From a bacterium (GTDB lineage: Bacteria; Patescibacteriota; Minisyncoccia; Phycocordibacterales; UBA6899), in the NCBI GenBank assembly GCA_043742365.1, contig JAYTYM010000016.1, forward strand, positions 1 through 36,353: a stretch of DNA of 36,353 bases, read 5' to 3'. A program made the translations under genes and the position numbers. Under the pieces are notes generated by a model, which was given only the letters and a program-made list of their open reading frames with translations, was not told the DNA's origin and did no database searches. Below, piece by piece: positions 8,583 to 32,023 of the stretch (positions are counted from its first letter, which is position 1; each line of letters begins with the position of its first letter).

Positions 8583-10112
8583 ATGGACTTTACAACGGTT
8601 ATCGCAATCGGTGTTGGCTCAGGGATATTCGGTCTTATCGCCGGATACGTCATCCGCTGGGCACTTACCGTAGGGAAAAAGGGCTCGATTGAGATCGAGG
8701 TCAAACAAATGATGCTTTCTGCAAAGGAAGACGCACAAAAGGTAGTACAAGAAGCCGAAAAAAAGGCAGAGCATCATGCCTTAGAGCTCAAAAATTCTGA
8801 AAAAGAAAAGGAGCGAGAATGGAAGCGTACTGAAGAACGTTTAGTTAAAAAGGAGGAGCTACTCGATGGCAGACAAACCGACATCGACAAAGAAGTCGAG
8901 TCAATCAAAGGTAAGGCTGAGGAAATACGCGGTATAAAGACCGAGATCGAAGAGCGCAAGAAAGCGGTAGAGGTTGAGCTTGAACGGGTCGCAGGACTTT
9001 CCGAAGAAGAGGCCAAGCAAAGCCTGATCAAGAAGATCGATGAACGCTTTGAAGAAGATTTTCGTGTGCGCCTGCAGAAGCTCGAGCGCGAGGGCATAGA
9101 ACGCCTCGATCGTCGAGCTAAAGACATACTTTCTACCTCCATCCAGCGCCTCGCTGCTTCAACTGCGGGCGACATTATGACAACCTCGGTCAATATTCCA
9201 AACGACGAGATCAAGGGTAAGATCATCGGTAAAGAAGGCCGCAATATCCGCACCTTTGAGCGCTCTGCGGGTGTTGAGCTCATCGTCGACGATACCCCAG
9301 GAACTATCGTCATCTCCGCATTTGACCCAGTGCGCCGCCAGATAGCGCGCGTCGCACTTGAAAATCTTATTCTCGATGGCCGCATACAGCCTTCCAAGAT
9401 CGAAGAAATGTGTGAAAAAGCAAAAGATGACATCAATAAGATCATAAAAGAGAAGGGCGAGCAGGCCGTGTATGAGTGTGGAGTATTCAATCTTGACCCT
9501 CGCATCATCTCAATACTTGGCCGTCTGTACTTCCGTACGAGCTTTGGTCAGAACGTTCTTCAGCACTCCGTCGAAATGGGTCACATTGCTGGTATGCTCG
9601 CAGAAGAGCTTGGTGCAGATGTGCAAATTGCTAAAGCCGGTGCACTCTTGCATGACATCGGTAAGGCCCTTGACCATGAAGTACAGGGTACACATGTCGA
9701 CATCGGACGAAGGATACTTCAAAAATTCGGCGCAGATGAGCGCATCATTAAAGCGATGCAGTCGCACCATGAGGAATATCCTTACGAAACAATTGAATCG
9801 ATCATCGTCCAGACTGCAGATGCCATATCAGGTGGTCGCCCTGGTGCACGTCGTGAGTCAGTTGAAAACTACATTAAGAAACTTGAAGACCTCGAAAAGA
9901 TAGCGATCACAAAGCCAGGAGTTGAGAAAGCATACGCTCTTGCTGCAGGACGTGAGATCCGTGTCTTCGTTACACCAACTGCCATGAACGATATCGAAGC
10001 ACAGTCACTTGCTCGCGATATCGCCATACAGATTGAGCAAGAGATAAAGTATCCGGGTGAAATAAAGATCACCGTGATTCGTGAAACACGCTGTATTGAG
10101 TACGCCAGATAG
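8583..10112 (+). CDS. rny: Ribonuclease Y
   Basis: N-terminal TM segment, coiled coil, KH domain (GKIIGKEGRNIR) and HD domain (LLHDIGKA). Confidence 0.95.
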   Translation: MDFTTVIAIGVGSGIFGLIAGYVIRWALTVGKKGSIEIEVKQMMLSAKEDAQKVVQEAEKKAEHHALELKNSEKEKEREWKRTEERLVKKEELLDGRQTDIDKEVESIKGKAEEIRGIKTEIEERKKAVEVELERVAGLSEEEAKQSLIKKIDERFEEDFRVRLQKLEREGIERLDRRAKDILSTSIQRLAASTAGDIMTTSVNIPNDEIKGKIIGKEGRNIRTFERSAGVELIVDDTPGTIVISAFDPVRRQIARVALENLILDGRIQPSKIEEMCEKAKDDINKIIKEKGEQAVYECGVFNLDPRIISILGRLYFRTSFGQNVLQHSVEMGHIAGMLAEELGADVQIAKAGALLHDIGKALDHEVQGTHVDIGRRILQKFGADERIIKAMQSHHEEYPYETIESIIVQTADAISGGRPGARRESVENYIKKLEDLEKIAITKPGVEKAYALAAGREIRVFVTPTAMNDIEAQSLARDIAIQIEQEIKYPGEIKITVIRETRCIEYAR

Positions 10113-13682: not shown

Positions 13683-13797
13683 TGGTCAGTAGGGAGAATC
13701 GATTCCCCGGCGCAAGTGAAGCAGCGACCAAAATCACTTGAGCGTAGCGATTTGAGATTGGAAGTACTCTTGTGGTGTTCACTTGCTTCCCGCACCA
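13683..13797. ncRNA. tRNA-associated structured element A (short form of element B at 24246..24487); strand unresolved
   Basis: The 46-nt core at 13720-13765 matches 24358-24403 at 44/46. It is enclosed by the 9-bp helix 13712-13720 / 13778-13786, which covaries with copy B. A T-arm-like hairpin GGGGAAUCGAUUCUCCC lies at one end. Confidence 0.5.
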
Positions 13798-13840
13798 ATA
13801 TAAAAAAATCCTCTAAAGGATTTTTTTATATTGGTGCGGG
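13789..13840. terminator. Long perfect hairpin that incorporates the CCA end of the preceding tRNA-like element
   Basis: cccgcaccaatataaaaaaatcc-tctaaa-ggatttttttatattggtgcggg, 23-bp arms. Confidence 0.6.
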
Positions 13841-13989
13841 ACGGGAGAATCGAAGTCACGAATCACTAAATCTTTTTCGCTTTGCTCAAAAGCTTAAGTG
13901 TTCTCGACCCCGGCGCGCCACCTCACAAAGCTTCGGTATGCCTTGCGCCCAGTTCGATTCTCCGGAAGCTATGCTTCCTCCGTCCTCGC
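13832..13989 (-). ncRNA. tRNA-Gly-derived minihelix-like element with masked T-loop and about 100-nt insert; ends ..GUCCCGCACCA
   Basis: The 3' end UUCGAUU-CUCCC-GUCCCGC-A-CCA equals the T-loop, T-stem and acceptor of the adjacent tRNA-Gly(UCC). The 5' end GCG(A)GGAC mimics the acceptor 5' strand. The hairpin GGAAGC-AUA-GCUUCC follows. GGAGAAUCGAA (13953-13963 on plus) is the exact complement of UUCGAUUCUCC (13844-13854 on plus). Confidence 0.55.
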
Positions 13990-13990
13990 A

Positions 13991-14037
13991 TCGACAGCAA
14001 CAAAAAACGGCACAATGCCGTTTTTTGTTGCTGTCGA
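13991..14037. terminator. Perfect 22-bp hairpin between tRNA-Gly(UCC) and the minihelix-like element
   Basis: tcgacagcaacaaaaaacggca-caa-tgccgttttttgttgctgtcga. Confidence 0.6.
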
Positions 14038-14038
14038 G

Positions 14039-14109
14039 TGCGGGACGGGAGAATCGAACTCCCACCAAGAGTTTGGAAAACTCCTATTCTACCATTAAAC
14101 TAGTCCCGC
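14039..14109 (-). tRNA. tRNA-Gly (anticodon UCC), CCA not encoded
   Basis: GCGGGAC-UA-GUUU-AAUGGUA-GAAU-A-GGAGU-UUUCCAA-ACUCU-UGGU-GGGAG-UUCGAUU-CUCCC-GUCCCGC-A. All four stems pair. Confidence 0.93.
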
Positions 14110-14130: not shown

Positions 14131-14384
14131 TTCACCAAGAGTTTGGAAAGGCCTGTAGGCACTTCCAAATTTATACTTACTGCGGTCGTTAAATTTTTAG
14201 GTCGGTGCGCGAAATGGGAATTTCGGCACACTTCCAAATTTATACTCCTTACAGGAGCTGTCCACTTATTGGGTCTTTTTCAAAAGCCCTCAATGAGTCT
14301 TACGGTGCGGGTCCCGTACCCACACCTCACGCTCTGCTCCTTAAATTTTAGGTCGCTCCCATTCTACCCTTAAACTAGTCCCGC
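14131..14384 (-). ncRNA. Promoter-proximal composite: a perfect tRNA-Gly 5' half (14355-14384) fused to about 220 nt of structured repeat modules, with no T-arm
   Basis: GCGGGAC-UA-GUUU-AAGGGUA-GAAU-G-GGAGC is followed by two CGACCUAAAA..UAUAAAUUUGGAAGUG modules. There is an 18-nt exact direct repeat at 14160-14177 and 14229-14246. A copy of the window-start module sits at 14258-14348. A 17-nt duplicate of the tRNA-Gly(UCC) anticodon/variable region lies at 14133-14149 (= 14063-14079). Confidence 0.5.
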
Positions 14385-24245: not shown

Positions 24246-24487
24246 TGGTCGGCGTGCAGGGAATCGAAGCTTACTGCTTCAGTATACCTTTGCGATTTAA
24301 TCGAAGCATAACTCCTCATAAATACCGCAAAGCTCTTCGATTCCCTGGCGTGAGCAAAGCAGCGACCAAAATCTCTTGAGCGTAGCGATTAGAGATTGGA
24401 AGTGACCAATTCTTCTTTTGCGCTCATCCGCTTAGAAGAATGGAAATACTCTCGTGGTGACTCTTGTGGTGTTTACTCACTCATCCC
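24246..24487 (-). ncRNA. tRNA-Pro-like CCA-ended structured element B (long form of element A)
   Basis: Ends CUUCGAUU-CCCUG-CACGCCG-A-CCA (C1:G72-type, Pro-like). A 13-bp perfect inverted repeat cagggaatcgaag (24257-24269) / cttcgattccctg (24335-24347) masks the T-loop. The 46-nt core at 24358-24403 is shared with element A. The helix 24350-24358 / 24472-24480 covaries with A. Confidence 0.55.
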
Positions 24488-26616: not shown

Positions 26617-26647
26617 CAAGGACATTAATGGCATTCATCCAGTGTTA

Positions 26648-26737
26648 TGGGGATAAAGCTGTGCACAGTGGGGATAAAGGACAACTCCCAATTTTGTAAA
26701 CTGTCCTTTATAAACAGTATCCACAGGTTTATCCACA
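26648..26737. promoter_or_regulatory. Cluster of four DnaA-box-like 9-mers
   Basis: TGGGGATAA at 26648-26656 and at 26669-26677 (1 mismatch each, one orientation). GTATCCACA at 26717-26725 (1 mismatch). TTATCCACA at 26729-26737 (perfect, opposite orientation). Confidence 0.5.
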
Positions 26738-26794
26738 TAATTGTGCATAACTCTGATTTAGGTGGCAAAAACTGCCATTTAGGTAGTTATTTAG

Positions 26795-26940
26795 TGGTGC
26801 GGGCAGATAGAATCGAACGCACAAGTTACTTAGTATTTTGACGCAAGAGCCTTAAAAATACTAAGTATCCGCGGTCCCACCTCGCTATCTTACAGAGCTT
26901 CGATATAGCTCCGGTCAGTTCGATTCTTCCGTCCCGACGC
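26795..26940 (-). ncRNA. tRNA-Gly-derived minihelix-like element (homolog of 13832..13989); ends ..UGCCCGCACCA
   Basis: The 3' end UUCGAUU-CUAUC-UGCCCGC-A-CCA has the acceptor of the adjacent tRNA-Gly(GCC). AGAAUCGAAC (26918-26927 on plus) complements GUUCGAUUCU (26809-26818 on plus). It shares GAAUCGAACUG, CGAAGCU.UGU.AG and GAGGUGG with the 13.9-kb copy, plus a homologous long hairpin with changed sequence. Confidence 0.55.
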
Positions 26941-27060: not shown

Positions 27061-27190
27061 AAATAATTTTTTCTTCAAAGACGGCTTTTCGATGGGAGAA
27101 CTTCCAATTCTTACTACTTTCGATCTTGGAATTTAGGTCGCCCCCACTTAGCTCAGCAAAGTTCATATTTTACCATCAAACCATGCCCGC
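27061..27190 (-). ncRNA. Promoter-proximal composite: tRNA-Gly 5' half mimic (27161-27190) plus a CGACCUAAA..UUGGAAGU module, with no T-arm
   Basis: GCGGGCA-UG-GUUU-GAUGGUA-AAAU-A-UGAAC is followed by about 60 nt and then GUUCU, which closes the anticodon-like stem. The module (27098-27140) is flanked by the helix UGGGGG / CUCCCA. Confidence 0.5.
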
Positions 27191-27200
27191 ATGTCGTCAT

Positions 27201-27378: not shown

Positions 27379-27513
27379 CAGCGAGTCTTCGAGTTGGCTC
27401 CCGAGGAGCTGAACTGCTTCAGCTCCGACAGGATTCGAAAGACTTTTCGTTGACGATTCCTAGAGTCCGAAAAGTACCTGCCGATGTAATCGGAGAATCC
27501 TGGCGGGAGCACA
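27379..27513 (+). ncRNA. tRNA-Arg-derived minihelix-like element bounded by a 19-nt direct repeat of the tRNA 3' end
   Basis: gaatcctggcgggagcaca occurs at 27362-27380 and 27495-27513. The insert carries GCUCCCG (27397-27403, complement of the acceptor 3' strand) and the hairpin GGAGCUGAA-CUGC-UUCAGCUCC. It also carries CAGGAUUCGAA (27429-27439), the exact complement of the T-loop/T-stem at 27359-27369. Confidence 0.55.
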
Positions 27514-27557
27514 AAAGCGTCTAAAAATGAGAACTGCTTCTCATTTTTAGCTTTTGT
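27514..27557 (+). terminator. Intrinsic terminator after the tRNA-Arg unit
   Basis: CUAAAAAUGAGA-loop-UCUCAUUUUUAG, 12 bp, followed by CUUUUG. Confidence 0.75.
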
Positions 27558-27760
27558 GAGACAGAGTATGTTTTGTTCAGCAGAACGAAACAACGAGTCG
27601 GGGTCGCGGAAATTTTCGAGTGAAGACGAGAAAATTATCTGTGACCTGCGCCCAGATCTCACATATCATAGAATTTCTGACATAACGTTTTAAATGAGGC
27701 CCTTTATGGGCGCTCCTATTTAATGAATTGAGCTTTTGATGACATAATACTATTATCCTC

Positions 27761-29245
27761 ATGCCCCACTTCACCATTCCTGACGAGATAAAAAACATCA
27801 CCAACACCCTACAAAGTGCTGGATTTGAGGCGTACCTCGTTGGTGGGTGCGTGAGAGATCTTTTACGCGCAACTACTCCTAAAGACTGGGATGTGACGAC
27901 AAATGCGAATCCCGAACAGATAATATCCTTATTCACTAAAACATTTTATGAAAACGAATACGGAACAGTGGGTGTGGTTAATGAGTCAATATCTGAGGAC
28001 GAGACAGAAAAACTTTCATTGCGGGTAGTAGAAATTACGCCCTATAGAAAAGAAACTACTTATAGCAACTTTCGTCATCCCGATGAGGTGGTCTTTTCCG
28101 GAAATCTGCATGATGATCTTATGCGCCGCGACTTTACCATGAACGCCATCGCGTATGATGTGAAAAATAATGAGCTTGTTGACCCATACGACGGTCAGGG
28201 TGACATAAAACGTCACTTAATTCGCACTGTGGGAAAGCCTAAAGACCGTTTTAACGAAGATGCTCTGCGCATTATGCGCGCTGTTCGTTTTGGTGCTGAA
28301 CTTGGTTTTGTCATAGAAAAAGAGACCATGGACGCGATAGTCTTGTTCGCACCTCGACTTGAGACTATCGCGGGGGAGCGTCTACGGGATGAGTTCACGA
28401 AGATAATCATGTCAGAACGACCAATGGAAGGGATTATCATGCTCGAACGAACAAAAACCCTCAAATATATCCTGCCTGAGCTTGAACAAGGTCTTGCATG
28501 CGAGCAAAATGGCGACCACATTTATGATGTGTGGGAGCATAACCTCCGCGCACTGCAGCATTCTGCAGAACGAAAGTGGCCGCTGCATGTACGCATTGCA
28601 GCGCTCTTACATGACATTGGGAAGCCTGCGACTCGCAAATGGTCAGAAGAAAAACGCGACTGGACGTTCTATGGTCACGACGTTGTCGGCGGGAGAATGG
28701 CAACGAAGATCCTTGAGCGCCTGCGTTTTCCGAAGCAATTCATTCATGATGTCTCAACGCTCGTGCGCTATCATTTATTCTTTTCTGATATTGAAAAAAT
28801 AACTCTCTCAGCTGTTCGTCGCATTGTTTCTAATGTTGGACCTGAATTAGTATGGGACCTTATGAACGTGCGGGCGTGTGACCGTATTGGGATGGGCAGG
28901 CCAAAGGAAACTCCATATCGATTACGTAAATATCATTCAATGATTGAAGAGGCGATGCGAGACCCTATATCAGTCGGAATGATCAAGCTTGATGGTCAAA
29001 AAATAATGCAAATTACAAAAGAGAGTCCGAGCCCGAGAATCGGCTGGCTCTTGCATGCACTTTTTGAAGAGGTGCTCGAAAATCCCTTATTGAACAGCGA
29101 GGAATATTTGACCGCCCGCACTATAGAACTCGCAAAAGACGACCCTGAGGTACTAAAAAAACTCGGCGAGGCAGGGAAAGAAAAAAAGGATGAGAAAGAG
29201 CAGGGAGAGGTGAATGCAATTCGACAAAAATATCGTGTTAAATAA
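27761..29245 (+). CDS. cca: tRNA nucleotidyltransferase (CCA-adding enzyme family) with HD domain
   Basis: GGCVRDLLR..DWDV polymerase-beta head, RDFTMNA, and HD motif AALLHDIGK. Confidence 0.9.
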   Translation: MPHFTIPDEIKNITNTLQSAGFEAYLVGGCVRDLLRATTPKDWDVTTNANPEQIISLFTKTFYENEYGTVGVVNESISEDETEKLSLRVVEITPYRKETTYSNFRHPDEVVFSGNLHDDLMRRDFTMNAIAYDVKNNELVDPYDGQGDIKRHLIRTVGKPKDRFNEDALRIMRAVRFGAELGFVIEKETMDAIVLFAPRLETIAGERLRDEFTKIIMSERPMEGIIMLERTKTLKYILPELEQGLACEQNGDHIYDVWEHNLRALQHSAERKWPLHVRIAALLHDIGKPATRKWSEEKRDWTFYGHDVVGGRMATKILERLRFPKQFIHDVSTLVRYHLFFSDIEKITLSAVRRIVSNVGPELVWDLMNVRACDRIGMGRPKETPYRLRKYHSMIEEAMRDPISVGMIKLDGQKIMQITKESPSPRIGWLLHALFEEVLENPLLNSEEYLTARTIELAKDDPEVLKKLGEAGKEKKDEKEQGEVNAIRQKYRVK

Positions 29246-31084: not shown

Positions 31085-32023
31085 CTATTGCCGACGTTTG
31101 TCGTGAAACTGTTTATGAATGTCCCTGAGTTTGCTATCGGTCACATGTGTATAGATCTGTGTGGTTGCAATATTTGCATGTCCGAGCAATGCCTGCACCG
31201 AGCGCAGGTCAGCACCATTTTCAAGAAGGTCTGTGGCAAAGCTGTGGCGAATAACATGAGGAGTAACCTTTTTAGAAATACCTGCTTTAACTGCGTAATG
31301 TTTCACGAGGCGTTCCACAGATCGCGGCGTCAGTCGCAGATCTCCCTTTTTGGTCGCAAGAGTTTTTACTCCACCTCGACCGATCTGAATGAATAACGCA
31401 CTATCTACATCTGTCCTTTTGTTTAAGTACAGTTTGAGTGCGTTCTTGGCTGTCTCTGACAAAAAAACCACGCGTACTTTTTCGCCTTTTCCACGTACGG
31501 AAAATTGATCACGCGTCAGGTCAAGGTCGCGTGGAAGTCCACACAACTCTGAGACACGCAGTCCAGTTGAAAAGAAAAGCTCAAGTATGGCGCGGTCTCT
31601 AAGTGCAGGAAGCATCTCTCCTTGTGGGGCATTCAATAGTCGCGTCAGGTCTTGAGACGAAATAAGGTCGAGTTCTCGCTCTGATGCTTTCGCGAGCTCA
31701 ATACGTTCAGGCGACATGACCGAAACCCCTTCGCGCGAAAGATATTTGAGAAATGCGCGCAGGGCAATAAGGTAGTAATTCTGGGTGCGCTTCTTCAGCG
31801 TATCTGATGCAATGCCACGCTTAGAAACGCGTGCATTCTGGCGATTAAGCCACAGTCGATACTCACGCACTATTTCAAGAGTTATTTTCTCTGGGTCCGT
31901 GAGTTTCGTGTGTTCGATGAATCGAGAAAGATAGTGATCATAATTAATGACGGTTTTAAGGCTTCTGCCTTTTTCGATCTCGATGTATTCAAGAAAGCGT
32001 CTTTTCCATTCAATGAGATTCAT
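31085..32023 (-). CDS. Tyrosine site-specific recombinase, XerC/XerD-like
   Basis: N-terminal SAM-like domain. C-terminal catalytic motifs: LRVSEL (Arg), HVIRHSFAT, LLGHANIATTQIYTHV (Tyr). Confidence 0.9.
   Translation of the reverse strand: MNLIEWKRRFLEYIEIEKGRSLKTVINYDHYLSRFIEHTKLTDPEKITLEIVREYRLWLNRQNARVSKRGIASDTLKKRTQNYYLIALRAFLKYLSREGVSVMSPERIELAKASERELDLISSQDLTRLLNAPQGEMLPALRDRAILELFFSTGLRVSELCGLPRDLDLTRDQFSVRGKGEKVRVVFLSETAKNALKLYLNKRTDVDSALFIQIGRGGVKTLATKKGDLRLTPRSVERLVKHYAVKAGISKKVTPHVIRHSFATDLLENGADLRSVQALLGHANIATTQIYTHVTDSKLRDIHKQFHDKRRQ

Follow-up and report, generated by a model that had tools for sequence, protein, structure and literature searches.

Integration into a tRNA gene classically leaves a direct repeat that extends from the T-loop to the gene's 3' end. 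In E. coli, the tyrT repeats associated with rtT RNA, a processed small RNA, are units behind the tRNA that end with its last ~19 nt and CCA. tmRNA has a tRNA-like domain whose T-arm is exposed, together with pseudoknots and a reading frame for the tag, and group I introns of tRNA genes have a P3-P9 catalytic core, are inserted in the anticodon loop and interrupt an otherwise contiguous tRNA. RNase P and the CCA enzyme recognise a coaxial helix of at least 12 bp with a 3' ACCA.

We compared with these systems a minus-strand segment at 13832-13989 of the window (the whole 36,353-nt stretch of DNA analysed here), which a sequence-only reading had described as a "shadow" of the neighbouring tRNA-Gly(UCC). 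ARAGORN and Rfam (RF00005) called only four true tRNAs, none of them at 13832-13989 even at E <= 10. No tmRNA was called by ARAGORN in the window, and the Rfam tmRNA model matched neither the window nor the core of any related copy, the only sub-threshold match in a locus of the family described below (L040, 22.5 bits) lying outside the core; the paired T-loop and the 158-nt length of the element are also at odds with a tmRNA. A group I intron was rejected on the lack of an Rfam match (Intron_gpI), on a core of ~90 nt with three helices, and on an insertion site in the T-loop with an intact tRNA alongside, and rtT RNA (RF00391) gave no Rfam match either. Rfam 15, searched at its gathering threshold across the whole window and at E <= 10 or E <= 1 at the UCC locus and six good family loci, returned only tRNAs and hairpin noise (miRNA models).

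Read along the minus strand from 14384 to 13690, the locus opens with an outer, ancestral 5' fragment of tRNA-Gly(UCC) (positions 1-29; 14356..14384, 27/29 identical to the intact gene), adjoining the ancestral upstream flank ...GTCAATTTGTTAGGATACGAAGCAC..., which is the flank found immediately 5' of the intact tRNA in the relative L260. Two small repeats, called Z (14229-14355 and 14160-14204), lie between this fragment and a second outer one, the 3' part of the anticodon arm (CTTTCCAAACTCTTGGTG, 14133..14150, a 17-nt exact repeat of 14063-14079). The intact tRNA-Gly(UCC) (14038..14109; ARAGORN, Rfam tRNA 66.7 bits), which has no encoded CCA, stands inside the split ancestral gene. Behind it comes hairpin H1 (13991..14037), a 21-bp terminator-like bidirectional stem in inverted repeat I1 (38-nt arms, 82% complementary), whose palindrome extends at one end over the 3' terminus of the tRNA and at the other over the shadow's 5' arm. 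The shadow starts 48 nt behind the tRNA with S'a (GCGAGGAC, 13982..13989), which apart from one additional A is antisense to GUCC-CGC, the 3' strand of the acceptor. The small hairpin Px (GGAAGC-AUA-GCUUCC, 13964..13978) separates this segment from a second antisense one, S't (GGAGAAUCGAA, 13953..13963), the perfect 11-nt complement of the T-loop and T-stem 3' strand. There follow a core (13855..13952), consisting of a P2-like hairpin (~13912-13951), GGGG and a long hairpin P3 (13855-13908) ending in GUGAC, and a tail, UUCGAUUCUCCCGUCCCGCACCA (13832..13854), which corresponds to tRNA positions 54-76, that is UUCGAUUCUCCCGUCCCGCA plus CCA, and supplies the 3' strand of helix P1. The tail's UUCGAUUCUCCCGUCCCGCAC is identical at 21/21 positions to the 3' end of tRNA-Gly(UCC) (14038-14058; 0.01 matches expected from shuffles), so that the tRNA 3' part forms a 21-nt exact direct repeat with copies 204 nt apart; CCA is encoded in the tail, whereas the tRNA gene itself lacks it. 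The ~200-bp interval between the repeats holds no ORF. After the tail stands hairpin H2 (13797..13831), a terminator with A and U tracts in inverted repeat I4, whose palindrome (25-nt perfect arms) reaches into ...UCCCGCACCA and into the arm of the next element, UGGUGCGGGA. This next element is a core-less relative (~13690..13796, minus strand; 90-96% identity over 47-67 nt with 24337-24403) with the order antisense arm UUGGUGCGGGAAG, Px-like hairpin and T-arm-like GGGGAAUCGAUUCUCCC, its Px-like hairpin being invaded by an inverted Z repeat.

The predicted fold of 13832-13989 has an MFE of -70.4 kcal/mol, against -48.0 +/- 4.2 in shuffles (z -5.3; 0/200 shuffles equally stable). Its outer helix has ~19 bp, broken by the Px hairpin and a single bulge, and leaves an ACCA overhang; the fold contains the coaxial acceptor/T-stem-like helix with a 3' NCCA overhang that characterises RNase P minihelix and CCA-enzyme substrates; the T-loop is paired. 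The sequence-only reading had thus been accurate on the exact copy of the tRNA-Gly(UCC) 3' end with CCA (21 nt, 13832-13854), on the perfect 11-nt antisense at 13953-13963 and on the near-continuous outer helix with its overhang. The 5' arm of the shadow can pair equally well with the real tRNA 3' end across the intervening hairpin (I1).

The ~100-nt insert that this reading had seen in place of the D and anticodon arms is not arbitrary: it is the conserved part of the element, a P1-P2-P3 junction recurring across CPR phyla. The tRNA-like tail is variable and target-derived; the core also closes on the topA 3' end and on trailer sequence. We defined a type-A family, with covariance model R1, by NCGGAG ... 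CGAGKYGGGGUCGCGRAA ... UAUYYGUGAC on this junction. Its invariant part is a three-way junction made of a 7-bp closing helix P1, strand J1/2 (RAAG-NCGGA), hairpin P2, strand J2/3 (GAGKYGGG) and a long hairpin P3 with invariant G.U pairs; there is no J3/1 strand, and the strands of the junction are strongly conserved and rich in purines. Host sequence directly 3' of the putative insertion point supplies the 3' strand of P1, and the 5' strand of P1 is the antisense of that sequence. R1 matched the UCC shadow at 13843-13962 (24.9 bits, E = 5e-7) with a full-length alignment, both this copy and the Gly(GCC) copy described below being outside the seed. The final 7 nt of S't are aligned as the 5' strand of P1 (AAUCGAA/UUCGAUU), and the pairing between T-loop and antisense is simply the closing helix of the family. 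The UCC shadow is a divergent member of type A (GGGGUCGAGAAC), with no CGGAG/CGAG motifs in P2.

In the type-A alignment, 91.8% of cells were paired, vs 73% in shuffles, and both-sided changes were found at 22/33 pairs, a level reached by 0/500 shuffles; when the 3' partners were slid by 1-3 columns as a control, pairing fell to 39-50%. At one position G.U is invariant (20/20), and another has G.U in 13/20 and G-C in 6/20, so that the functional strand is the tRNA strand. That the element is a genuine folded structure, conserved and strand-specific, was borne out. Scanning genomes for the core motif returned 120 loci, of which the low- and mid-GC ones were nearly all from CPR, with three Elusimicrobia (L014, L073, L123), and the high-GC ones were rejected as in-gene chance matches. 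R1 yielded 80 matches in 64 CPR loci (at most 4 per 8 kb). IMG/VR viral contigs gave only 10 matches to the core motif, all at ~70% GC and below 19 bits, and thus chance matches. No recurrent protein family emerged when the ORFs within 1.5 kb of 76 cores were clustered, the sole recurring neighbours being orthologous topA...relA/spoT, and no transposase, integrase or reverse transcriptase linked to the cores was found among neighbouring ORFs. No match for the family emerged from the searchable literature, and a published paper on CPR rRNA insertion sequences mentions neither tRNA nor the core motif. The elements, which are small, protein-less and tightly folded, apparently form a large undescribed family, present in dozens of genomes of ultra-small CPR/Patescibacteria and in a few Elusimicrobia.

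The four loci with different tRNA sequences proposed at the outset do exist, and hundreds of metagenomic loci can be added to them; the three others in the window fold similarly (z between -4.2 and -4.9). The Gly(GCC) shadow, with a type-A core (26797..26940, minus strand; R1 32.7 bits, E = 4e-10), has an outer 5' tRNA fragment at 27142-27191 and a 5' arm that fits a UCC-type 3' end better than its own tail (inverted repeat I21). The Pro shadow (approximately 24246..24368, minus strand) has a type-B core ending UACUGAAGCAGUAAGCUUCGAUUCCCUG...CGACCA, and pairing there would take in CCA. The Arg shadow (27396..27512, plus strand) has a type-C core and a small hairpin with a CUGC loop; its L006 orthologue keeps three hairpins through double compensatory changes. 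The sequence-only reading was borne out in that the closing helix pairs the T-loop-derived tail with an antisense arm; at the Arg locus just 8 nt of the T-loop region are paired and CCA is absent. The window contains more than four related copies: besides the core-less one at ~13690-13796, a canonical type-A core without a tRNA-like tail lies at 27547..27657 on the plus strand (R1 92.5 bits, the copy being in the model's seed), with a CUGC-loop hairpin ahead of it (27521-27550) and a counterpart behind tRNA-Arg in L009 that differs by compensatory changes and a compensatory indel. At both Gly loci of the window, CCA is on the native 3' end and not on the element-supplied one; as a rule this was rejected, the figures in type B being 9 vs 13 of 55.

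Type B, represented in the window at tRNA-Pro, occurs in at least 120 metagenome loci at tRNAs of at least 34 anticodons. Of its copies with a nearby upstream tRNA, 55/77 share at least 12 nt, mostly 21 nt, identical to that tRNA, and the arm sequence differs at each of the 34 or more targets. Px hairpins are present in most type-B copies, and in L262 the core stands within the T-loop of the upstream 5' copy.

Association with tRNA genes was also evident in type A, 33/52 members lying 26-92 nt behind a same-strand tRNA of 14 amino-acid identities. Thirteen members repeat 8-19 nt of the 3' end of their tRNA from C56 (10 of them at least 10 nt), and an anchored direct repeat of at least 10 nt was found in 11/62 copies vs 1/62 in the control; these anchored-repeat counts are lower bounds, since the anchored P1/direct-repeat script mis-registers several copies. 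Across copies the direct repeat ranges from 0 to more than 40 nt. The putative insertion sites lie mostly in T-loop-coding DNA of tRNA genes, and also at the extreme tRNA 3' end and the topA 3' end, and the tail starts exactly at this site in every class (in tRNAs, C56 after GGTT). In the topA copies the tail repeats the 3' coding end of topA, with the P1 3' strand as the precise starting point (33/33 nt in L018; 57 nt at 88% in L087; 35 nt at 94% in L080), with a 33-nt identical block followed by a diverged second copy of the gene end. The same core closes as well on generic trailer sequence; many family members have the 7-bp P1 only, with neither acceptor mimic nor CCA, and the many class 2 copies stand at a fixed distance of ~46-55 nt behind tRNAs with no duplicated gene fragment. 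The arms differ by target, equal the target sequence and are 7 to ~21 nt long. Derivation of the arm from the tRNA's own 5' acceptor strand was rejected, as complementarity takes in the discriminator and nucleotides of the spacer as well, and the arms extend the terminator palindrome (L143, L145 and L179). A scar of T^CGA restriction cutting fits the T-loop sites but fails at topA and class 2 sites. A terminator-like hairpin often lies between tRNA and core, so that co-transcription may be inefficient; copies between two tRNAs without a terminator, such as the core between tRNA-Val and tRNA-Pro in L016, must be co-transcribed.

Comparison with relatives documented the presence or absence of the element at individual genes. 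L260 (89% amino-acid identity) has an identical tRNA-Gly(UCC) with neither shadow nor 5' fragment. Since this relative is shadow-less and its upstream flank is the one abutting the 5' fragment in the window, the tail at 13832..13854 is the 3' remnant of an older, ancestral tRNA gene split in the T-arm. The same split-gene logic applies to Gly(GCC), whose element is missing at the syntenic locus in L006. L261 (77% identity) carries a homologous shadow, then a second, tandem type-A core, and more tandem units were seen at other loci; its arm GCGGGTA, the equivalent of GCGAGGAC, matches its own tRNA acceptor, and its Px homologue is GGAAGTGCC-CUGC-GGCACTTCC. At the Pro locus, the older orthologous copies of the window and L006 lose tRNA identity and keep the helix, and orthologous copies compared with L006 and L009 keep P2, P3 and the small hairpin by compensatory changes. 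An attempt to establish synteny through the adjacent 507-aa protein was abandoned, its homologues not lying beside tRNA-Gly; two of the homologue loci, L004 and L005, happened to carry related elements. No excised/empty-site pair with clean boundaries was recovered among the compared loci, and since no mobility gene is linked to the elements either, we infer their mobility from distribution only.

Our preferred explanation, to which we give a probability of about one half, is that the UCC shadow is a copy of a non-coding, structure-defined insertion element of ~90-160 nt that is protein-less and co-transcribed with tRNAs. An ancestral tRNA-Gly(UCC) with encoded CCA and its own terminator would have been split in the T-arm by the element, so that the intact tRNA, H1, the antisense arm and the core would now lie within the ancestral gene and its orphaned 3' end (54-76 plus CCA) would be the tail. 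The gene that is hit would stay functional because its 3' part (at other loci its 5' part) becomes duplicated, leaving an intact gene next to the element and a gene fragment on the opposite side. Candidate routes for this duplication would be a small circular intermediate (Campbell-style recombination), break repair or template switching. Transcription of the element would follow the tRNA strand, making it a trailer or spacer of the tRNA, and its self-folding may prevent the trailer from disturbing the tRNA fold. In young copies such as the UCC shadow, the modelled ~19-bp acceptor/T-stem mimic with its 3' ACCA would make processing by RNase P and the CCA enzyme plausible. Several observations sit less easily with this explanation: the antisense arm is target-specific and would have to be generated or reprogrammed at every insertion, and we know of no transposition chemistry that makes a target-specific antisense arm each time; class 2 copies stand at a fixed distance from tRNAs without a duplicated gene fragment; and the cross-phylum core and its compensatory changes are no less compatible with an RNA under host selection than with selfish DNA.

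The last of these points leads to a doubtful but possible alternative, a host-functional tRNA-linked ncRNA family, in which a processed stable RNA, with a mimic matched to the neighbouring tRNA, is cut out of the tRNA precursor by RNase P and CCA-tailed, and either serves tRNA-binding factors as decoy or sensor or works in cis within tRNA operons as a processing or insulating module. Selection or gene conversion would then keep the duplicated tRNA end, which would not be a left-over of insertion. A deeply conserved, covarying core with invariant G.U pairs on the tRNA strand is what such an RNA would show, as are the double compensatory substitutions and the compensatory indel seen against L006 and L009, but the identical core closes on topA coding or generic trailer sequence, and many copies have the 7-bp P1 alone. 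The antisense arm tracks lineage-specific acceptor changes (window vs L261) and 55/77 type-B copies match a nearby upstream tRNA, yet older Pro copies lose their tRNA identity while the helix stays, and the element is missing at the same tRNA in close relatives. Co-transcription in L016 fits a host RNA as well; copies that are tandem, or that carry or lie inside other small repeats, do not, and the 5' tRNA fragments beyond the intact gene play no part in this model. The sequence-only reading had left the choice between function and a specific generating mechanism, and of these the generating mechanism is the better-supported half and function the less supported one.

A more far-reaching version of the insertion element, which we regard as unlikely, would be a programmable mobile RNA or ssDNA, protein-less or trans-mobilised, whose junction is catalytic or recruits a recombinase, whose arm guides it to the target sense strand and whose insertion copies the target. 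Insertion would in that case make both the inverted arm and the duplicated gene end, and essential tRNA genes would thereby survive; to our knowledge, such guide-directed copy-the-target insertion has no counterpart among transposons, introns or integrative elements. Quite improbable, too, is a guide-bearing element with a core that serves as ribozyme scaffold or as partner of a recombinase or nuclease encoded elsewhere, and with arm, tail or both as a guide that selects the site of insertion or cleavage. A conserved scaffold directly flanked by variable target-matched segments, a tail that starts exactly at the insertion point in every class, an arm that differs for each of at least 34 type-B tRNA targets and purine-rich conserved junction strands, like those of catalytic or protein-binding RNAs, would suit such a guide, but the tail that would be the guide pairs in cis with the arm, arm length varies from 7 to ~21 nt, no nuclease or recombinase gene is linked to the cores and Rfam gave no match to a known guide RNA family. 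The analogues of this idea would be IS110 bridge RNAs, TnpB omega-RNAs and the EBS-IBS pairing of group II introns; the CPR guide system known from the literature, TIGR-Tas, consists of unrelated arrays processed into 36-nt RNAs. Finally, that the repeat is the attL/attR scar of a deleted integrase island or prophage, with an arm made by template switching that extended the terminator palindrome and a meaningless core, is very improbable, for although the direct repeat runs from T-loop to tRNA 3' end, perfect palindromes surround both terminators (I1, I4) and the window has an Xer-like tyrosine recombinase gene (31085-32023), the repeats are only ~200 bp apart around a conserved covarying structure of many phyla, the same core is also seen where there is no repeat, the recombinase is a housekeeping gene in synteny rather than element-linked, and IMG/VR viral contigs lack the core motif, high-GC chance matches aside. 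The L006 orthologue of the recombinase gene carries the Phage_integrase family.

The very small, streamlined genomes of CPR/Patescibacteria harbour many copies of at least two deeply conserved, covarying ncRNA families, types A and B, which have no entry in Rfam 15 and no report within the searchable literature. Hitherto unexplained features of CPR genomes, namely pieces of tRNA genes, 5' and 3' pseudo-halves and the long palindromes that surround tRNA genes, are explained by the elements, which probably mislead the annotation of tRNAs and genes. If mobile, they hit the T-loop, the cell's most conserved DNA, without destroying the gene; if host RNAs, they represent a novel tRNA-operon RNA class restricted to one third of bacterial diversity. 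Under either reading, the CPR strains now in culture allow direct tests of the family.

Set beside the described systems, the UCC shadow has in common with rtT and the tyrT repeats only the tRNA 3' end with CCA; rtT units are not known to have an antisense arm or junction core, nor to occur outside one enterobacterial operon. RNase P minihelix substrates and external guide sequences resemble the predicted ACCA helix of the UCC copy, directly behind its tRNA, and plant tRNA-snoRNA genes and MHV68 tRNA-miRNA units likewise have a small RNA released by tRNA-processing enzymes; unlike in RNase P minihelices, the T-loop of the element is paired, and most family members have no acceptor mimic or CCA. 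A retron ncRNA was rejected, no reverse transcriptase gene being adjacent to the cores. The element does share with retron msr-msd a structured ncRNA closed by flanking inverted repeats, and with TnpB omega-RNA a scaffold followed by flank-derived sequence, but it differs from both and from IS110 bridge RNA in having no adjacent RT, TnpB or recombinase gene, no sequence or Rfam similarity, many copies per genome and a tie to tRNA trailers. As in tRNA-gene integrative elements with P4-type integrases, an intact gene, an element and a displaced 3' fragment follow one another, with identity from T-loop to discriminator and with the 3' part of the tRNA directly repeated on both sides of the element, and the topA copies carry a repeated gene end as phage 21 and e14 carry a replacement 3' end of icd. 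No cognate integrase was found in the element or consistently linked to it, however; at ~200 bp rather than kilobases, with dozens of targets, 5'-fragment variants, an RNA-type three-way junction and a target-specific antisense arm, it departs from integrative elements. A MITE was rejected on the lack of intrinsic conserved TIRs and of a short, fixed target-site duplication, the arms equalling the target. The Rickettsia RPEs and the Neisseria Correia elements are likewise multi-copy, protein-less, strongly folded and patchy among relatives, and insert into or beside genes, including RNA genes, with which they are co-transcribed; the family described here is set apart from them by inverted arms copied from the target and by an asymmetric core conserved across phyla.

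The minus strand carries tRNA-Gly(UCC) (14109-14038, tRNA callers), a 21-bp hairpin behind it (H1, 14037-13991), a 5' arm segment GCGAGGAC (13989-13982), the small hairpin GGAAGC-AUA-GCUUCC (13978-13964), an antisense segment GGAGAAUCGAA (13963-13953), about 98 nt of structured sequence and a tail UUCGAUUCUCCCGUCCCGCACCA (13854-13832), followed by a second terminator hairpin. The 21 nt of the tail up to GCAC matched the 3' end of tRNA-Gly(UCC) exactly (0.01 matches expected from shuffles), and the 158-nt stretch folded at -70.4 kcal/mol, versus -48.0 ± 4.2 when shuffled (z -5.3). This identity and the outer helix present in the fold confirmed the layout and closing helix proposed in the sequence-only reading. 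The 5' arm paired equally well with the real tRNA 3' end across H1 (inverted repeat I1). The three other loci said to repeat the arrangement, Gly(GCC), Pro and Arg, all exist and fold comparably; however, the Gly(GCC) copy has a UCC-type 5' arm, and the Arg copy lacks CCA and pairs over the T-loop through just 8 bp.

Unexpectedly, two loci lying 5' of remote homologues of the adjacent protein (L004, L005) had the same internal motifs as this element, for example GGGGTCGCGAG...ACTTAG...CTAAGT...TGTGACC and TACTGAAGCnGTAAGCTTCGA. Scanning one genome per species with CGAGKYGGGGTCGCGRAW, we obtained at least 120 loci. High-GC loci were chance matches inside genes; among the matches listed, those of low or mid GC were nearly all from Patescibacteria (CPR; Saccharibacteria, Paceibacteria, Nomura-, Adler-, Kaiser-, Taylor- and Lloydbacteria, Minisyncoccia), plus three Elusimicrobia (L014, L073, L123), and had in common a full element of about 90-110 nt, here called type A. 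The nearest named relatives of the window's proteins are Patescibacteria and Parcubacteria. No Rfam 15 family matched the type-A element, even at E <= 1, and literature searches found no published description of it.

A 20-sequence alignment defined type A as a three-way junction, with P1 of 7 bp, J1/2 RAAG-NCGGA, P2 of 3+8 bp with loop AGCA, J2/3 GAGKYGGG, P3 of 15 bp and no J3/1. Pairing was observed in 91.8% of pairing cells versus 73% after shuffling, both sides had changed in 22 of 33 pairs (0/500 shuffles as high), and sliding the 3' partners by 1-3 columns as a control lowered pairing to 39-50%, so that the structure is strongly supported. One P3 pair was G.U in every sequence and another in 13 of 20 (G-C in six); since these would be A.C mismatches on the opposite strand, the tRNA strand is the one on which the structure is read. 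A covariance model of the core (R1), with the finding and the Gly(GCC) copy both left out of its seed, matched the finding at 13843-13962 (24.9 bits, E = 5e-7), the Gly(GCC) copy (32.7 bits, E = 4e-10) and L005 (45.7 bits); the search for further copies was positive, with 80 matches in 64 CPR loci, up to four per 8 kb. Type A is a CPR-wide structured family with its strand assigned. As P1 in the alignment of the finding is AAUCGAA/UUCGAUU, what had been described as a masked T-loop is the family helix P1, and the insert of about 100 nt, previously described as replacing the D and anticodon arms, is, by the R1 match and covariation, a conserved family part. Type-A cores in the Elusimicrobia MAGs, outside CPR, scored 52-55 bits (L014 6750-6849, L073 377-477, L123 2872-2971); in L073 a complete T-arm and acceptor 3' strand follow the core.

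The copies prefer tRNA trailers and gene 3' ends, and their tail and arm derive from the target. Among the matches listed, 33 of 52 motif-defined members lay 26-92 nt behind a same-strand tRNA (14 amino-acid identities), and certain copies stood between two tRNAs without a terminator (L016, Val-core-Pro); the elements are probably co-transcribed with the tRNAs. In class 1 ("shadow"), the sequence 3' of ...GUGAC begins at C56 of the T-loop and duplicates 8-19 nt of the adjacent tRNA (at least 10 nt in L024, L025, L026, L037, L055, L076, L093, L094, L096, L099 and L120), at times extending into spacer and terminator (L093, at least 40 nt), and the 5' arm is antisense to this duplicate over 7 to about 17 nt (16/17 matching in L120). 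Class 2 combines a long hairpin, whose loop is often CUGC and whose stem reaches the last 3-5 tRNA nt, with a short P1 after it, while class 3 has an additional 5' hairpin (L045 and L086 cores lie inside a tRNA-Ser-like 5' fragment). In a crude anchored test, whose figures are lower bounds, P1 of at least 7 bp was found in at least 23 of 62 copies (9% for mismatched flanks), and an exact direct repeat of at least 10 nt in at least 11 of 62 (1/62 in the downstream control). Class-1 junctions (for example L024, L094, L120; window 13952-13855), with the tail from C56 and the antisense arm ending ...TCG, coincide with the exact T^CGA / TT^CGAA cut position of TaqI-/BstBI-type restriction enzymes; this match may be coincidence, as it fails at topA and class-2 sites.

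The design is not confined to tRNAs. A type-A core follows topA (Pfam) in six CPR lineages, and its tail repeats the gene's 3' coding end from exactly the P1 3' strand onward: 33/33 nt in L018, where the final ~40 nt with the stop codon then recur in diverged form, 88% identity over 57 nt in L087 and 94% over 35 nt in L080. These tails give a general design, gene ... S ... gene end - hairpin - S' - core - S ... old gene end, S being the target-derived segment and S' its antisense arm. The doubled topA end flanks the core at L018 3600-3930 and also in L022, L058, L080, L081 and L087; in several CPR classes the topA-linked cores have topA on one side and a relA/spoT-type gene on the other.

The Pro copy is a member of a separate family, type B, with an 18-nt motif, TACTGAAGCWGTAAGCTTC, present in at least 120 loci from metagenomes. 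Among the matches listed, 107 copies had enough flank, of which 77 lay no more than 400 nt behind a tRNA on the same strand (at least 34 anticodons); in 55 the 3' end of that tRNA is repeated over at least 12 nt (mostly 21 nt), and 52 have an exact antisense arm of at least 10 nt (6.7% in the control). The layout is that of the finding: tRNA, terminator palindrome, antisense of the acceptor strand (also covering discriminator and spacer bases), a small hairpin Px, antisense of T-stem and T-loop, core and tail. In the Arg copy (type C), double compensatory changes preserve three hairpins when the window is compared with L006. Px loops of type B favour CUGGGAG or GUGGGAC across lineages, and CUGC loops, on covarying stems, are very common in hairpins before type-A cores and in the small hairpin of the Arg element (window 27521-27550 and 27404-27425, L009 9463-9491, many other loci); loops kept across lineages suggest recognition by something.

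In L260, a genome at 89% amino-acid identity, an identical tRNA-Gly(UCC) stands without shadow or any R1 match. Its upstream flank (...GTCAATTTGTTAGGATACGAAGCAC...) precedes in the window not the intact gene but an outer 5' tRNA fragment (14384-14356, 27/29 identical to tRNA-Gly(UCC)), which together with 14150-14133 and the tail 13854-13832 makes up an older, CCA-encoding tRNA-Gly(UCC) gene that was split in its T-arm, enclosing the intact tRNA-Gly(UCC), H1, arm and core. Gly(GCC) compared with L006 gave the same pattern of a split older gene. L261 (77% identity) has a homologous shadow, whose arm GCGGGTA matches its own acceptor sequence, then a second tandem core and decayed tail; in L262 (74%) the intact tRNA comes after an upstream 5' copy whose T-loop contains a type-B core. 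From these comparisons, T-loop insertion accompanies duplication of either gene side. Ancestral genes have been split, elements gained and lost among relatives, and copies lie in tandem and nested.

A separate small repeat, Z (CGACCTAAA(A)TT ... AA(A)TTTGGAAG(TG), 40-127 nt, both orientations), lies on the minus strand at 14229-14355, 14160-14204 and 27101-27140, and inverted at ~13725-13765 and ~24361-24403 (also L080 ~1225-1270); its sites include outer tRNA fragments, the loop of a Px hairpin and, in a Taylorbacteria genome, P3 of a type-A core, and its right end (TATAAATTTGG) looks promoter-like. A hairpin ACTCATTGnGGG...CCCAATnAGTGGACAG occurs behind gene 129-1880 (1-60, minus) and nested in the first Z repeat (14265-14310, minus), 86% identical over 28 nt. 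Between a UPF0102 (YraN-like) gene and tRNA-Gly(GCC), a DnaA-box-like cluster (TTATCCACA / GGGGATAAAG, 26630-26750) is kept in four related genomes (window, L006 9400-9510, L007 8900-8980, L009 8470-8560); it may be a replication origin, and the window's cumulative GC skew is lowest near 26-28 kb.

No integrase, transposase, reverse transcriptase or nuclease was linked to the cores, and core motifs in viral contigs were chance matches only. Directly 3' of the type-A core behind tRNA-Arg in L009, an uncalled short reading frame (9640-9975, plus) has by eye an HNH-endonuclease-like Cys/His pattern. A gene of the CCA-adding enzyme/poly(A) polymerase family (27761-29245, plus) lies immediately 3' of the tRNA-Arg, type-C and type-A cluster, an order syntenic in L006, L007 and L009.

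The main rival reading is a tRNA-operon RNA selected by the host, which gains support from the deep conservation and from the compensatory changes among orthologous copies. We infer instead a non-autonomous insertion element, whose self-closing fold would limit harm to the tRNA and whose young copies would mimic an RNase P/CCA-enzyme substrate. Such an element could have acquired its arm and duplicated gene end through a small circle and Campbell-style recombination, through break repair, or through template switching at the palindromes of terminator and T-arm. A guide-RNA-like mechanism is a further, less likely possibility. The elements are unrelated to TIGR-Tas arrays.
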